This document shows positions 1-38,836 of a stretch of 40,635 nt of DNA, piece after piece (within the stretch, counting starts at the first letter, position 1; each line of letters opens with the position of its first letter). The notes under the pieces were generated by a model. It had not been told where the DNA came from. It was given only the letters and a program-made list of their open reading frames with translations, and searched no databases. Where the stretch lies: IMG/VR virus record IMGVR_UViG_2541047850_000015. The stretch is one strand, 5' to 3'. A program made the position numbers and the translations under genes. The stretch comes from a virus. Taxonomy: Duplodnaviria > Heunggongvirae > Uroviricota > Caudoviricetes.

Positions 1-70
1 GAGTCTTGAGTCTTGAGTCTTGAGTCTTGAGTCTTGAGTCTTGAGTCTTGAGTCTTGAGTCTTGAGTCTT
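1..70. repeat. Perfect tandem heptanucleotide repeat (GAGTCTT)x10 on plus strand (AAGACTC on minus), truncated by the window edge
   Basis: Directly visible: ten identical 7-nt units from position 1 to 70. Confidence 0.97.
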
Positions 71-75
71 GACAT
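1..75 (-). CDS. neuO: 5' end (partial) of leftward gene whose reading frame runs into the heptad repeats; neuO-like phase-variable polysialic acid O-acetyltransferase candidate
   Basis: Minus-strand ATG at about 73-75 preceded by AGGA about 8 nt upstream, reading ATG TCA AGA CTC AAG ACT C... into the repeats; position just downstream of an endosialidase tailspike matches the described CUS-3 neuO locus. Rest of gene is outside the window. Confidence 0.5.
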   Translation of the reverse strand, partial: MSRLKTQDSRLKTQDSRLKTQDSRL

Positions 76-228
76 GTTAGTATCCTACGTTATTTTACCA
101 CTAGTTACTTTTCTTGTCATTAAAAAGCATTTAAATTTTTATATTTAATTTCGTTGACGTCAATGTTTTTTGCCAATGTACTTACTTCTTTATGTGAGCA
201 GTTCATATTTTTGACGCCAACGAAACAT

Positions 229-3174
229 TTAGTGCTTCCCTTCTATTAAGTCTAACCTAGCTTTTATTCTTTCTATTTCTCTGCGCTGCCATGCCGCCTC
301 GATATAGAATAAGAGATCAGGTCTGACCCCCCATCTAGATCCTGCTGGCGTTATTTCAACGCGCTCAATGATGTCTTCTATTACCATCACTGGATTATCA
401 TCCTCATCAACAATGATGCTCCCGTCATTATCAGTCAGCGGCATTTCCCTTTGGCCAGTAATGACGTCATCATATACTGCGGGATAATCGTCATAGCAAA
501 GAAAGGCATAGCGGCATGTTGTGCTTTCTTCTTCCATGAGTCCGTGAGAAATAAGAACATCACGAAGTTGCTGCGCGATTACACCATGATGTATCCTCGC
601 CCCTTCTTCCCCCTTTATAGCGACAGCGTTCAGCCATTTATAAGCGATATACCTGACGTCACCCCAGGCATCCAGCAATGCTTCGTCAGGAGAGACCGGC
701 TCTGTCTTTAATGTTCCGTCACTGGTAACCACAGGATTGGAGCCAAGATAAACTGTCGAGAACCTGTTTCCCGGACCACCAAGAGCATTTACATTATCAA
801 GATAAGGTTTAACATCTCCGTTCTCAAAAAGATGTTCGAGTGCGTTATATACCGCGCGACGTGGAGTACTGCTTCCGGAACCATGCAACGTTATCATTGC
901 ACCATCTGCTGAAGACGTTGTTTCACCGCCGCTAACGATTAATCTCTGAGCGGTAACATCATCAGACGGTACTTTCTTCGCAATAATGGCGTAATTACCC
1001 TCAAGTTTGACTTCCGCGCGAACTTGTCCTGATGTACCTGCATGGACAGTCAGTGACTGGACGGCAACATCATCTGTGAAATCAACGGGTACAGGAACCG
1101 TCCTCACGCCTGACGTCGACATAAAAGTAGGAAGCGTTCTGTTAGGAGTGGCTCCGTAGACAAAATCCCTTGAAACAAATTCTTCCTGTTTAATTTTCAC
1201 CCTGAAACAATACAAATCAGCCGGGTGACCATCGTGAACATAAGGATATTTTCTGTTGTTATCCCCTATGCTCCATGGGTTTAGAAAATCTTCCCCACCG
1301 AAAATGTAGTACAGCCAGTTGTCTTTGATACAAACTGAACCAACACCAACCGCAGAGTTAACTATTCCGCCCTGATAAATCTGATCAGTAACATTAACCC
1401 ACTCTACATTATCCAGACTCCACTCATTGACGTTAACTCTGGTCATAAATGTTCTTGGATAATTTCCTGCATAACGGTTATCAGGTTCTCCTCCTTCCCA
1501 CTCACCAAATGCGCGCTCACTGCCAAAAATAACCAGCTCATCGCCAACTTTGGCAAAAGGAAGGTTTGAGTGATGAACATTATTTGGGAAGCGAAGAGAA
1601 TTCCATGATGTACCTAAATCAGAGCTTCTGTGCAATGAACTACCGGGTTGAGTACTTAATGTCCCCCTGGTCGTCAGATACAGAATGCCATCATAATATT
1701 TTACACATGGCTCAGATGCATTCGCCTCATATTCTGCAGGTATGCGTCTGCGAACAAAGCTACCAGGAGAACCGAAAGCATCAGAGAAATAGAGTATCCC
1801 AAGCTCGCGTGGACCAATATCACCATTATGGTAGCCAACAGCAAAACTGTTATCGCTAATCGTCGCAAAACTGTGAATCTCAGTAACAGGAGTGCTTCCG
1901 TCAACAAAAGAAGGAATAGTTCCAAGACTGGTTTTTCTCCATGGTGACGAGTGAAATGATGTGCCAAAACTCCAGTATCTACCCTCGTTATTCTGATCCA
2001 CATCCTGGGTATTTTGCGTCGTAACTGTAAAGGTATTTTTATCAATAACAGTAGTCACCGTCATATTCCCGGTAACATCTGTAACACCAGAGTTTGAGAA
2101 GTTGACAAAATCACCAGCAAATAATCCGTGATCAGTAATGCGAATATAAGCGACTTGCTGATTTGCTGCTTTCGTTATACCACCATAAACGCGAAGGCTG
2201 CGACTCATTGGGCGATCCCACAACTCTGCAACCTGCAGTTTATTTCCTCTCACGGTCCGCGTCTCAATTACAGCAAAAAGGCGATTTCTGACAACCCCCA
2301 TACTCATGCAGTGATAGTTAACTGTGGGATAGTTTTCATGTAAATCTGTAAGCCATTCCGGCGTTGTCCAGGTCTTCCCGTCATCTCCTGAGCGAACCCA
2401 TGCAACATGGAGGTTATTTACACCATGGCGGTCTCCAGCCATAAAAGGCGCATAGATGACATTGTCATATACAAACGTTTTATCCTGCGTCCAGGCGTTG
2501 TACCACGGTGTATCTGTAATTTTAAATAACTCTCCCTGGATAAAATCTTCAGAAGCATAAAAAAGAGGCTGACCCGGTATTCTCTCAAATAAAAAACGAG
2601 CATTTTTAAATCGACTGACATCTGGAAGAGTTGATACTTTAAAAGTAAGCCCTCGCCCATCTATCTTTTCACCACCTGTTGCAACAGAAAGTAATTCTGA
2701 TAGAGCTGATGTATCATCATGAACACCATCACCAATAGCCCCCCAACCTCTTACATCATAACTGTCTCTCCATCTTGCTATCTGAAGTTTTGGGTATTTA
2801 TTCGCTCCATCTGGGTCTTCTAATTGCTGCCGTAGTTGATCTGGGTCATACTTCAGCACATTAGGAAAATAGAACTGCTGCGCACCATACGCATCATAAA
2901 CAGCCATAGAATGGCCTTGCACGGTAACGAATTTGGCAATCTGTCCGTTATATACAGGATATCCAGCAGCGTTAATGATGATTGGTTGAGAAACAGGAAC
3001 GTGAGAACCGTCTTCGTTCTCCACATAAGCCTGAATCTGGTTTTCAGGATTTACAGGGTCAGTATCAATTTTACCGATATAAATTTTGCCATTAGCTACG
3101 GCTTTAAAAGAACGCGCCATAGTGAAGAGTTGCGAAGGCATCGATACAATCACATTGGCTGTAATGTCTGTCAT
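229..3174 (-). CDS. Tailspike: P22 gp9-type N-terminal head-binding domain fused to an endo-N-acetylneuraminidase (endosialidase) domain with C-terminal intramolecular chaperone domain
   Basis: N-terminus [10 protein letters not shown]...[11 protein letters not shown]...VLKYDPDQ closely resembles P22 gp9 N-terminus; two Asp-box motifs ([16 protein letters not shown]) typical of sialidase beta-propellers; C-terminal about 150 aa resembles the self-cleaving chaperone domain of K1F/K5 tailspikes. Confidence 0.85.
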
Positions 3175-3232
3175 TTAATTTGCTCCAGATACAAGGAATC
3201 GCCGAAGCATGGCTACGGTGAATTTTGGGCAT

Positions 3233-3258
3233 AAAAAAACCCAGCCGAAGCTGGGTCG
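3233..3258 (-). terminator. Rho-independent terminator downstream of ant (CCCAGC-TTCG-GCTGGG followed by T-run on minus strand)
   Basis: GC hairpin plus run of 7 T on the minus strand between ant stop and tailspike start. Confidence 0.6.
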
Positions 3259-3296
3259 TTGCGTTGGTTATTGACCTACACTTTTCGTGCAGGTAG

Positions 3297-4283: not shown

Positions 4284-4505
4284 TCACTGTTTTTGTAAGT
4301 CACTGTAGCTATAAAGCCACTGACCACTCATTTTTGATTTGATTGACTCTACTGAATCACGGCAAGGAATGATTCCGCCTGACATCATTCTGATCTCCGT
4401 AAATTCACCACTCCTTATCGATTCAATGCCATCAATGTTAACTAAAGATTTACCTCTACCAAGTGCATTCTCATAGCCAATCTCATCAACCTCAATAAAC
4501 CTCAT
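4284..4505 (-). CDS. Hypothetical 73-aa protein inserted between arc and ant, start overlaps arc stop (ATGA)
   Basis: ORF in track; GAGGGG upstream; translational coupling to arc. No recognisable family. Confidence 0.45.
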   Translation of the reverse strand: MRFIEVDEIGYENALGRGKSLVNIDGIESIRSGEFTEIRMMSGGIIPCRDSVESIKSKMSGQWLYSYSDLQKQ

Positions 4506-4750: not shown

Positions 4751-5005
4751 ATGGCTAGAAACGATCCGCACTTTAACTTCCGTATGCCTTTGGAAGTAAG
4801 AGAAAAATTGAAATTAAGAGCAGAGGCTAACGGAAGGTCAATGAACTCTGAGTTATTACAAATCGTTCAGGATGCTCTCTCAAAGCCATCACCGATTGCA
4901 GGCTATCGAGACGAAGCTGAACGCTTGGCTGATCAGCAAGCAGAGCAGTTCAAGGCCGTTGTGTTTGAGACACTTAAAAAGATTTATGGCAAGGATGATA
5001 AATAA
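4751..5005 (+). CDS. mnt: Mnt repressor
   Basis: MARNDPHFNFRMPLEVREKLKLRAEANGRSMNSELLQIVQDALSKPSP... is near-identical to P22 Mnt. Confidence 0.92.
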   Translation: MARNDPHFNFRMPLEVREKLKLRAEANGRSMNSELLQIVQDALSKPSPIAGYRDEAERLADQQAEQFKAVVFETLKKIYGKDDK

Positions 5006-5541
5006 TGCTGCACACAATTCATTTCTTATGCCCCGTTAACACTGCCACTGTTGGGCAACTTCAGAACCACTGTCTCACCGCATTATCTCAAGGCGCAACT
5101 GAATTAAATATCCATATATCAAGTCAGGGAGGGGAAACTGCCGCTGGCTTTACTGCGTATAACTTTCTTAAGTCACTCCCTGTTACCGTTAGAACTCACA
5201 ACATAAGCAATGTTGAATCCATAGCTAATATCGTTTTCCTGGCTGGCTCAGAACGTTTCGCAAACCCATTATCAAGATTCCTGTTACATCCTCTATTATG
5301 GTGCTTTGCCTCCCCAGCCGCCGACCATGCCAGATTGAGAGAGTACGGGAAATGCCTCGATAACGATCTTGATCGCTTCGTTGAGACGTTCAATATCGAC
5401 ATCGGAACCCATATTAGGTGGGCATCCCTGATAGCAGACTCGACCATTTTGGATGCTAACAAGGCTCTTGAGCATGGCATAATTAATTCCATAAAAACCG
5501 CAAGGCTGGCATCCAATCAGGCAAACTGGTGGGTTGTTTGA
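5005..5541 (+). CDS. ClpP-like serine protease-domain protein (178 aa), translationally coupled to mnt (TAATG overlap)
   Basis: Alignable by eye with ClpP: ISSQGGETAAGFTAY / VSTIC..S..A / RF..P.SR...H; candidate Ser-His-Asp triad positions retained (ESIAN, LLHPL, ADSTILDA). Not in the head module. Confidence 0.55.
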   Translation: MLHTIHFLCPVNTATVGQLQNHCLTALSQGATELNIHISSQGGETAAGFTAYNFLKSLPVTVRTHNISNVESIANIVFLAGSERFANPLSRFLLHPLLWCFASPAADHARLREYGKCLDNDLDRFVETFNIDIGTHIRWASLIADSTILDANKALEHGIINSIKTARLASNQANWWVV

Positions 5542-7457: not shown

Positions 7458-8318
7458 ATGAGTTTTGATGATTCTTTTTCTAAACGAGTTGCCATAGCGC
7501 GCAACTCCATCGGTTTGACTCAATCCGAGCTTGCTAAGAAAGTAGGCGTGGTATCCAGACAGATCGCTGCTTACGAGGGCGGGGAAGCCAAGCCAAGAGA
7601 AAAGGCACTTCAAAACCTTGCGGCTGCATTGGGAACTACCACTGAATGGCTTACGCAAGGGAAAGGAGATGGCCCTGACGTTAGCAGTGTCAAGAGAACT
7701 GTTACTGTGCGCGAGATTCCTGTGCTAACACACGTACAGGCAAGATTTGAATCGCTAGATGATTTACTAAAGACTGCTGCTATAAAGGACTTTATTCCAG
7801 CCCCTCCTGAAGCCAATGAATACTGTTTTGCCGTTGAAATACAAGGAGACTCCATGTCTTCCGGTGATGGGATTAGCTTTCCTCCTGGAACAATCGTAAC
7901 TTTCGATTCATCGCTAGAGGCTGTTTCTGGTGACTTTGTGATGTGTGTGCTGAATGATGATTCTGAGGCTACATTTAAGCAGCTTATACTGGATCAGCGC
8001 CAAATCTACCTTAAGCCACTTAACCCTTTATACCCTATGTTCCAACCTGATTTTATCGAGGTTGTTGGCGTGGCTATTCATTCTCAGTTCCGAATAAAGA
8101 GGGAAAAACTTATCTCTCCAATGCCGCATAGCGAAGTAGAGAAACTGGTTGAAGAAGCACACAAGGTTAGCCAAGATTTTTGGTCAAATGCAAAATTTGA
8201 CAAGAATACACCCTTTGACGAACGTCTTAAGCGACTAGATGAAATTGCTGAGCGCCTTGAGAAATTTGCTAACTACAGCCTTTCACAGGCCCGTTATAAA
8301 CACTCACCAGACAAGTAA
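7458..8318 (+). CDS. cI/LexA-like repressor: N-terminal HTH (XRE) plus S24 peptidase domain with about 75-aa C-terminal helical extension
   Basis: HTH segment GLTQSELAKKVGVVSRQIAAYEGG; S24 motifs GDSM and FKQL...KPLNP; AAGGTG RBS. Confidence 0.7.
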   Translation: MSFDDSFSKRVAIARNSIGLTQSELAKKVGVVSRQIAAYEGGEAKPREKALQNLAAALGTTTEWLTQGKGDGPDVSSVKRTVTVREIPVLTHVQARFESLDDLLKTAAIKDFIPAPPEANEYCFAVEIQGDSMSSGDGISFPPGTIVTFDSSLEAVSGDFVMCVLNDDSEATFKQLILDQRQIYLKPLNPLYPMFQPDFIEVVGVAIHSQFRIKREKLISPMPHSEVEKLVEEAHKVSQDFWSNAKFDKNTPFDERLKRLDEIAERLEKFANYSLSQARYKHSPDK

Positions 8319-8402: not shown

Positions 8403-8753
8403 GTGAATACTCAGTCTGTCATCATGGTTTTCCTTGGGCTGATTGTCGCAAAACTATATCCAGACTGGTGGAAAGGGGCATTAGCTACTGTCGCCATCTA
8501 TTTGCTTTTATCCATCGTTAAGCGATCACTCGCTGAGACCGTAAATCAAGCAAAACGTTTCTCATTTAAGAGTTTAATAAACTATGTTACTGGGCTTATT
8601 TTTTGCCTTTCAATTCTGATCGCTTCGGCTTTTTTGCCCGTATCAATAGCTAATTTTTTTGGCGCACCATATGAGGTAGGTTATCTATTCTCTGTTTCCT
8701 GTCTTGCCATTGCTCTTCTTTCCCTGTGGACGAGATCAAAGAATAAAAATTAG
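8403..8753 (+). CDS. Small integral membrane protein (about 4 predicted TM helices), GTG start with AAGGAGG RBS
   Basis: Four hydrophobic stretches of about 20 aa; lysogen-direction strand, convergent with gp16 homologue; position equivalent to P22 sieA. Confidence 0.5.
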   Translation: MNTQSVIMVFLGLIVAKLYPDWWKGALATVAIYLLLSIVKRSLAETVNQAKRFSFKSLINYVTGLIFCLSILIASAFLPVSIANFFGAPYEVGYLFSVSCLAIALLSLWTRSKNKN

Positions 8754-30520: not shown

Positions 30521-31385
30521 GAACTTTCAGGTAGGTATTATCGTTAAGCAGGAAATCAAATCCCTTTTTGTGCCAGACGGTTCCGCGTTGATGGTTTGTG
30601 CGCTCTTCGAACATCCATCGGCAATTTTCGCCAACGTAGCTCAAATAATTTCTCCAGTCCTGCATCGTGAACCCATGCCCGTCAAGCTGGCGGGTTATCA
30701 CTCCGGCTTTGCGCCAGAACGTTCGGATCTGGTTTTTACGCTTGTCATTCAGTGCGCGGATTCTTGGCGCTTCAGGAAGGATTTCGTGGTAAGCATCGAC
30801 AACATCCTGACAGCTAACGGAAGGTTTTTTCTTGTCAGACTTTTTGTCTGCTGTGGCACTCTCTAATACGTCAGTATTAGAGATATTATTTATATTATTG
30901 TTTATGGACAACCGTTGGACAACCGTTGGACAATCTCCGCTGAGAGCCGCGCCATTACTGGTGTTTGCGTTGGACAACCGTTGGACAACCGTTGGACAAT
31001 TTTTTGCCTGAAAATCGTCATATTTAACGATTGTAAACAGGCTAAATTTCTTCCCCATCGAGCAAATATTAAGCATACCTTTCGACTCAAAAGTCCGTAA
31101 TAAGCTCCGAACTTTGTTGTCGGGGATGAATGTTTCTCTGACCAGCGACGGGCGTCCAGTTATCATCTGACCGCGATCAACAGTTATCGGACCGATATCC
31201 GTATTGACGACAGTAGATTCGTGATTAGCCTTGAGGATTAAGTGAAGCCAAAGATGTACTGCCTGAGAGTCCTTATAGAGCCTGCTGTCCATAAACTGGC
31301 GGTGTATAGAGACATACCCCATACTGGATGCCTCCTGATGTTGTACAGGGTTATGCCTGTAATCAGCTAACTTAACGACGCCCAT
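30495..31385 (-). CDS. Replication initiator (O-like / replisome organiser) containing the origin iterons; probable true start at internal ATG about 31321 with AGGAGG RBS
   Basis: Position between cII and helicase; internal DNA repeats produce repeated peptide CPTVVQRLSN; start ambiguity noted. Confidence 0.75.
   Translation of the reverse strand: MGVVKLADYRHNPVQHQEASSMGYVSIHRQFMDSRLYKDSQAVHLWLHLILKANHESTVVNTDIGPITVDRGQMITGRPSLVRETFIPDNKVRSLLRTFESKGMLNICSMGKKFSLFTIVKYDDFQAKNCPTVVQRLSNANTSNGAALSGDCPTVVQRLSINNNINNISNTDVLESATADKKSDKKKPSVSCQDVVDAYHEILPEAPRIRALNDKRKNQIRTFWRKAGVITRQLDGHGFTMQDWRNYLSYVGENCRWMFEERTNHQRGTVWHKKGFDFLLNDNTYLKVREGEHDDR
30870..31000. repeat. Origin-like iteron cluster: about six direct copies of an 11-bp unit (TGGACAACCGT) in two blocks plus adjacent AT-rich tract, inside the initiator gene
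   Basis: Seen directly at about 30905-30932 and 30971-31000; AT-rich segment about 30871-30900. Confidence 0.75.
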
Positions 31386-37902: not shown

Positions 37903-38066
37903 GAGGACTTGCATACAATCCCGGCATTCTTCCAGCAGAAATGATTATTCGCCAACGCGTAAAGCCAATGCCATCGAGAGAGGAATTACTTAAGCGAAAC
38001 TCATTTCCATCAGTGAATCAAAACAAACATCTGAATGCGATGTGGCGCAAAGGAGGCGACCAGTGA
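37899..38066 (+). CDS. Small hypothetical protein (55 aa)
   Basis: Hand-translated [34 protein letters not shown]...; coupled to flanking genes. Confidence 0.35.
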
Positions 38067-38560: not shown

Positions 38561-38836
38561 TGGTCTCCTTCGCGAAATATACGATTATTGACTGGATAGC
38601 ATTCATTCAGGTTTTGCTCATCTGGTTTTATATGGCTTACAGGAGTGGACAGTGGATTGTCAGTGTAGCCTGTAGCAATGGATGGCGTTGGTAGAACCGA
38701 AAGAATAAAAAAGCGCTGGCCTTGGCTTCGTTTTACGAAGCATTCAATCTTAACAGTCTTCAGCCTGGTTCTGTCGTTGTAGTCACCACTCAAAGCGGCA
38801 TGACGATACAAATTCACAAGCCAAAGGAGGAAGGTC

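Follow-up and report, generated by a model that had tools for sequence, protein, structure and literature searches.

The left end of the window, by which we mean the whole stretch of viral DNA that was analyzed (40,635 nt; IMG/VR record IMGVR_UViG_2541047850_000015), was identified with a probability of about 97% as the 5' end of neuO, a polysialic acid O-acetyltransferase gene that belongs to the cargo of a CUS-3-like, P22-type prophage inserted at argW beside dsdC in E. coli. The assignment of the heptanucleotide repeat tract found there to the published neuO contingency locus is supported by all comparisons reported below; the locus is already known and represents no new biology. Recognizing neuO at this position provides the correct annotation of the left end of the window. 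It also places there a textbook mobile contingency locus, through which a prophage supplies E. coli K1 with a stochastic and graded switch of capsule O-acetylation. The present analysis shows which locus this is, how it is built, how copy number sets the frame, and that copy number is hypervariable among genomes; for the mechanism of slippage, the activity of the enzyme, and the phenotypes we rely on the literature (PMC3046976, PMC9659370, PMC13001214).

Repeat tract and start signals

Ten perfect GAGTCTT units, which read AAGACTC on the minus strand, occupy positions 1–70 and are followed by GA at 71–72. TRF called the tract at 1–72 with a period of 7, 10.3 copies, and 100% matches, and the 14-mer GAGTCTTGAGTCTT, a double unit, occurred nine times, always within 1–70, compared to no occurrence in 100 dinucleotide-preserving shuffles. 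Every unit contains TGA on the plus strand, which excludes plus-strand coding of the tract, and therefore only the minus strand is able to code. On this strand the AAGACTC tract is free of stop codons in all three frames up to the window edge. The minus-strand reading is ...ACGTAGGATACTAAC ATG TC (AAGACTC)n, with an AGGA at 86–83 that is separated by a 7-nt spacer from the ATG at 75–73, and AAGACTC units from 2 nt after the neuO start are thus present at the left edge of the window. PGAP places the start of the in-frame acyltransferase CDS of E. coli GN06667 at the ATG homologous to 75–73, and the AGGA Shine-Dalgarno (SD) sequence is kept across the other neuO loci that were aligned. The tract is a perfect, non-triplet tandem repeat in a coding region with a polymorphic copy number, as is characteristic of phase variation by simple sequence repeats (SSRs). 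The ten visible copies are a lower bound, as the tract extends past the edge of the window. A preliminary description made from the sequence had noted ten perfect units reaching the window edge and a minus-strand ATG with an AGGA ribosome-binding site that runs into them, and both were confirmed by direct reading, by TRF and the shuffles for the tract, and by the coordinates given above for the start signals. The features of the left end of the window are as follows.

1..70, minus strand: neuO poly-psi VNTR, the ten ATG-proximal AAGACTC units, which would encode RLKTQDS heptads if in frame (TRF, shuffles)
71..75, minus strand: neuO start ATG (75–73) and the TC preceding the VNTR (sequence; PGAP CDS start in GN06667)
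83..86, minus strand: AGGA Shine-Dalgarno sequence, 7 nt upstream of the ATG (sequence; conserved in aligned neuO loci)
92..120, minus strand: candidate sigma-70 promoter, ATGACA-17 nt-TAAAAT with extended TG, 10/12 (consensus match only)
135..163, minus strand: second candidate promoter, TTGACG-17 nt-AAAAAT, 9/12 (consensus match only)
149..226, minus strand: inverted repeat with a 16-bp stem and a loop of about 45 nt (complementarity and folding)
229..3174, minus strand: endosialidase tailspike, siaK1 homologue, 981 aa (Pfam; 99% DNA identity to CUS-3 siaK1)

Tailspike gene and intergenic region

The tailspike gene lies upstream of neuO on the same strand, separated by 153 nt from the ATG side of neuO. 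Its product combines a P22-type head-binding domain with endosialidase N-terminal, beta-barrel, beta-propeller, and tailspike domains and a C-terminal chaperone, and the Pfam model End_beta_propel matched with E = 1.4e-232. The region in between (76–228) is almost invariant among the aligned neuO loci, the candidate promoter region included, in an alignment from which the row of L022 was left out. A hairpin is located directly past the tailspike stop codon, with 15-nt arms at 149–163 and 211–225 that are 93% complementary and form a 15–16-bp stem. Its minimum free energy is -22.6 kcal/mol (z = -4.08; 0 of 200 shuffles equally stable), and its 3' arm shares bases with the TTGACG box, a candidate -35 element. 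This hairpin is conserved and sited between the tailspike stop codon and the candidate neuO promoters, and it may form or stabilize the 3' end of the late transcript, act as terminator of this transcript, or occlude a promoter. A plus-strand gene or a structured RNA at 1–228 was rejected as candidate on account of the TGA in each unit and of the Rfam search, which found no structured RNA at 1–228 and gave only sub-threshold chance matches elsewhere.

A role of the tract and its upstream region that goes beyond toggling the frame appears improbable. It would consist either in the hairpin coupling neuO to read-through of the late operon or in DsdC binding within neuO and altering slippage. Transcription of neuO depends on DsdC, a host regulator encoded beside the attachment site, and the possibility that DsdC binding within neuO modulates the slippage rate has been raised as speculation (PMC9659370). 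If true, either reading would add a deterministic layer to a switch that is regarded as purely stochastic.

Correspondence to phage CUS-3 and genomic location

The interpretation of the tract as the 5' end of a frame-switched neuO agrees with the sequence of Enterobacteria phage CUS-3 (CP000711), to which positions 1–3271 of the window are 99.0% identical. At the homologous spot, CP000711 is annotated with a neuO poly(psi) domain of 19 AAGACTC copies beside the siaK1 endosialidase, which supports the earlier suggestion that AAGACTC repeats in the 5' end of neuO next to an endosialidase tailspike reproduce the CUS-3 arrangement. PMC3046976 and PMC9659370 credit the description of the neuO poly-psi locus of CUS-3 from E. 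coli K1 RS218 to Deszo et al. (2005) and King et al. (2007). Both loci share the AAGACTC unit 2 nt past the ATG, an identical SD sequence, 153 nt of upstream sequence with hardly a base changed, the position downstream of the endosialidase tailspike and beside int/attL at argW, and the NeuO body with its multiple-of-three rule. The CUS-3/RS218 record differs in codon 2 (TTA, compared to TCA here) and, two bases ahead of the ATG, in a C/T change. The number of units is also different, at 19 in RS218, at least 10 visible in the window, and 52 in the identical genome of E. coli B2.3. The prophage backbone is mosaic in comparison to CUS-3 and aligns only in patches at 85–99% identity, the alignable parts being the neuO-tailspike module and portions of the structural, lysis, and nin regions.

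Positions 1–1200 of the window have a match in 194 of 5,426 complete E. coli genomes. The entire window is identical (40,635 of 40,635 positions) to the chromosome of strain B2.3 (NZ_CM185023.1, 4803119–4843753), and 99.995% identical, with two SNPs, to that of strain CU37RT-2. The gene order in the matching genomes is mlaA, yfdC, tRNA-Arg (argW), intS, neuO, tailspike, P22-like prophage, a torI/xis-like gene, and dsdC. The left end of the window falls inside the tract and its right end is the last base of dsdC, and the locus thus has the location known for neuO, in a P22-like prophage at the argW site, downstream of the tailspike and with dsdC adjoining. A circular permutation that would place the neuO body at the right end of the window was rejected, as recombination genes, the torI/xis-like gene, attR, and dsdC are found there.

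Gene body and reading frame

In strain B2.3 the tract consists of 52 perfect units, 42 of which lie to the left of the window edge and are followed by the neuO body; the gene body and the total copy number are thus located beyond the window, as the preliminary description had noted. At n = 52 the neuO body is not in frame with the ATG, and the ORF ends at 126 aa as MS(RLKTQDS)17RLVFH*, so that the gene is OFF as assembled. Modelled product sizes for this locus are 335 aa at n = 51, 126 aa at n = 52, and 143 aa at n = 53. Strain CU37RT-2 (n = 35) is likewise OFF with a product of 101 aa, and CUS-3/RS218 (n = 19) yields 49 aa. In contrast to these, strain GN06667, with at most two SNPs over 40.6 kb separating its prophage from the window, has n = 27 and is ON, encoding a protein of 279 aa. 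Full-length products were accordingly obtained only where n is a multiple of 3 (27 versus 19, 35, and 52). The acetyltransferase body that follows the tract comprises 216 aa and is in phase when n is divisible by 3. In OFF alleles, PGAP calls just a C-terminal 'acyltransferase' fragment of 111 aa.

The 279-aa protein of GN06667 scored 40.5 bits against the Pfam Hexapep family, for which the cut-off is 27. It matched the crystal structure of NeuO (3JQY) with E = 2.9e-160 and approximately 99% identity, the two sequences differing at 2 of 242 residues, both conservatively. As read in the identical and near-identical genomes, the ORF past the tract thus encodes the hexapeptide-repeat (LbH) polysialate O-acetyltransferase NeuO. 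The preliminary description had proposed that a 7-nt unit toggles the frame and that a hexapeptide-repeat acetyltransferase should be sought to the left, with termination right after the repeats in all frames as the opposing outcome. Three-frame translation gave a full-length product only at n divisible by 3, the acetyltransferase was found in the matching genomes (by both Pfam Hexapep and 3JQY), and one frame continues into NeuO.

Copy-number variation among isolates

Copy numbers were determined by searching with a 1,551-bp query that covers neuO and both flanks, and by comparing the span of the match with the query length in the 60 best genomes. In 59 of these, the span differences were exact multiples of 7, the exception being strain CE10 at -62. 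The 59 complete genomes carried 14–60 units in 27 distinct values, and in 24 of the 59 genomes n was divisible by 3. Copy numbers of 10 and 26 came in addition from a separate earlier search. The values derived from the spans were validated by direct counts in CU37RT-2 (35), GN06667 (27), and B2.3 (52), and the value obtained for MS7163 (n = 21) equals the published one (PMC13001214). A comparison of repeat counts among isolates, as recommended in the preliminary description, thus revealed wide differences. A published survey of 64 complete K1 genomes reported 3–53 repeats and 65.6% OFF alleles (PMC13001214), and the 59-genome sample is consistent with these figures. Four prophages that are at most 2 substitutions apart in 40.6 kb had n = 27, 27, 35, and 52, and the poultry isolates 729_xx_1_3_yolk (5,232,647 bp) and 729_021014_1_4 (5,232,657 bp), which have near-identical names and genome lengths, had n = 14 and 19. 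Such differing copy numbers in near-identical prophages and isolates indicate that the tract changes far faster than by point mutation, as slipped-strand mispairing would predict.

In IMG/VR, 16 of the 19 contigs that contain (AAGACTC)x4 represent neuO loci, and 7 of these 16 terminate within the tract with 9–13 units visible. The copy count at a sequence edge is consequently a lower bound only, and copy numbers should not be relied on when they come from a short-read contig or a truncated window. The frequent breaking of assemblies at this repeat, and the start of the window itself within the tract, could also be taken to mean that the tract at the edge is an artefact of assembly or of the cutting of the window, with the repeat collapsed or chimeric where the contig ends. 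This is very unlikely, however, as in complete genomes with the identical sequence the tract runs on and the neuO body behind it is intact, none of the units is imperfect, and the flank shows 100% identity; the cut explains only the visible count of ten. An assembly break at the window edge is plausible in general but is not needed here, where B2.3 is identical over the whole window and its tract continues.

One IMG/VR contig, L009 (IMGVR_UViG_3300007747_000060; minus strand, approximately 960–1075), contains a neuO allele that lacks the 12 bases TACTAA(C/T)ATGTC, including the start codon, and in which 13 units follow straight after ...AACGTAGGA. This allele is either a locked-OFF deletion or an assembly error.

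AAGACTC arrays in other genomes

Arrays of at least four AAGACTC units were observed in more than 100 genomes of unrelated species among the matches listed (loci L025–L144), often several per genome; examples are L030:5609–5719, L039:1327–1398, L040:6131–6179 (minus strand), and L128:6769–6895. The organisms include Acidobacteriota, Planctomycetota, Phycisphaerae, Balneolaceae, and a Methylococcales sponge symbiont. Most of these arrays are intergenic, and several are situated just upstream of or just inside gene starts. A total of 352 period-7 arrays of 139 unit classes was counted in these loci. The possibility that the (AAGACTC)n arrays of other phyla are relatives of neuO or represent a special motif was rejected, given their unrelated flanks and the 139 period-7 unit classes. 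They look like the generic heptamer-SSR phenomenon that has been described for other units (PMC4679880).

The exact occurrence of (AAGACTC)x4 in so many unrelated genomes and the dominance of period 7 among the tandem repeats of those loci would fit a generic, dispersed heptanucleotide SSR of intergenic or 5'-UTR location that has no role in frame switching, but the chance that the tract is one is negligible, as it starts 2 nt after an ATG with a proper SD sequence and is in phase with the 216-aa acetyltransferase body at n divisible by 3, the sequences flanking the other arrays bear no relation to neuO, and RLKTQDS-bearing NeuO protein has been purified and crystallized (PMC3046976). NeuO with heptads from an ON clone has also reportedly been detected by mass spectrometry or Western blotting.

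AAGACTC units were also seen in viral sequences outside neuO. In the contigs L014 (3097–3131) and L015 (minus strand, 4427–4461) five AAGACTC units are followed by an AAGCCTC array, and L023 (minus strand, 8479–8520), a viral contig of 242 kb, has six units in AT-rich surroundings.

Mechanism and comparison with other systems

For the neuO contingency locus the expected layout would be ATG-TC-(AAGACTC)n-GTTTTCCATTGATGAT..., with the neuO body after it. The length of the AAGACTC tract would change through slipped-strand mispairing in replication, in agreement with the description of a VNTR of 2–93 copies that begins 2 nt after the start codon, slips in replication, and gives active enzyme only at copy numbers that are multiples of three (PMC3046976). 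As a 7-nt unit is not divisible by 3, the left-handed beta-helix acetyltransferase is in frame (ON) only at values of n that are, and with other values translation ends a few codons past the tract (OFF). In the ON state, each three further units add one more RLKTQDS heptad at the N-terminus. Three units have been reported to correspond to one such heptad and catalytic efficiency to be linear with heptad number, and the heptad domain was disordered in the NeuO crystal (PMC3046976). As catalytic efficiency reportedly rises with the number of heptads, the tract would serve as both switch and dial for the O-acetylation of the K1 capsule. Protection against K1 phage by neuO has been described (PMC9659370), and in other K1 strains single clones reportedly switch the O-acetylation of their capsule reversibly ON and OFF (PMC13001214). 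O-acetylation would alter the susceptibility of the cell to K1 phages, neutrophils, and serum, and the significance of the switch lies in the altered resistance to these agents.

Non-triplet SSRs in 5' coding regions are also found in the lic genes of Haemophilus influenzae, with (CAAT)n, and in the opa genes of Neisseria, with (CTCTT)n. These loci resemble neuO in that a frame change by slipped-strand mispairing leads to stochastic ON/OFF switching of a surface-modifying function. They differ in that the unit of neuO is a heptamer, the gene is carried by a prophage, and enzyme activity scales with the length of the translated repeat (PMC3046976).

The next-best solved homologue of the 279-aa protein was OatWY of N. 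meningitidis W-135/Y (PDB 2WLC, E = 6.6e-31), which is likewise a left-handed beta-helix hexapeptide acyltransferase acting on a sialic acid capsule. In contrast to NeuO, however, OatWY has neither the N-terminal heptad domain nor a VNTR, and it is encoded chromosomally in the capsule locus and not on a prophage (PMC3046976). The TAACTGA repeats of the Beggiatoaceae (PMC4679880) resemble the neuO tract as tandem 7-nt units that are often located at or just upstream of gene starts and frequently cause assembly breaks. Such dispersed heptamers are mostly intergenic, occur in many copies per genome, and have an at most putative regulatory role, whereas the neuO tract is a single-copy coding switch.

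Further observations on the prophage

The sole differences between the window and the CU37RT-2 prophage are located at positions 38003 and 38693, both A in the window and G in CU37RT-2. Position 38693 lies in a DUF4752 gene that is annotated in B2.3 as a pseudogene with an internal stop codon. Immunity and accessory genes at 5005–5541 and 7458–8318 (according to the annotation of L004) had no DNA match in the alignment to the CUS-3 reference, and the genes lacking a CUS-3 match include those of a ClpP-family protease subunit and a second LexA-family repressor. Two perfect 11-nt arrays, TGGACAACCGT (2.6 copies) and CGTTGGACAAC (2.9 copies), are present 35 nt apart at 30905–30999. The gene that contains them precedes that of the DnaB-like helicase and corresponds to the lambda O position, and the arrays look like the iterons of a lambdoid origin.
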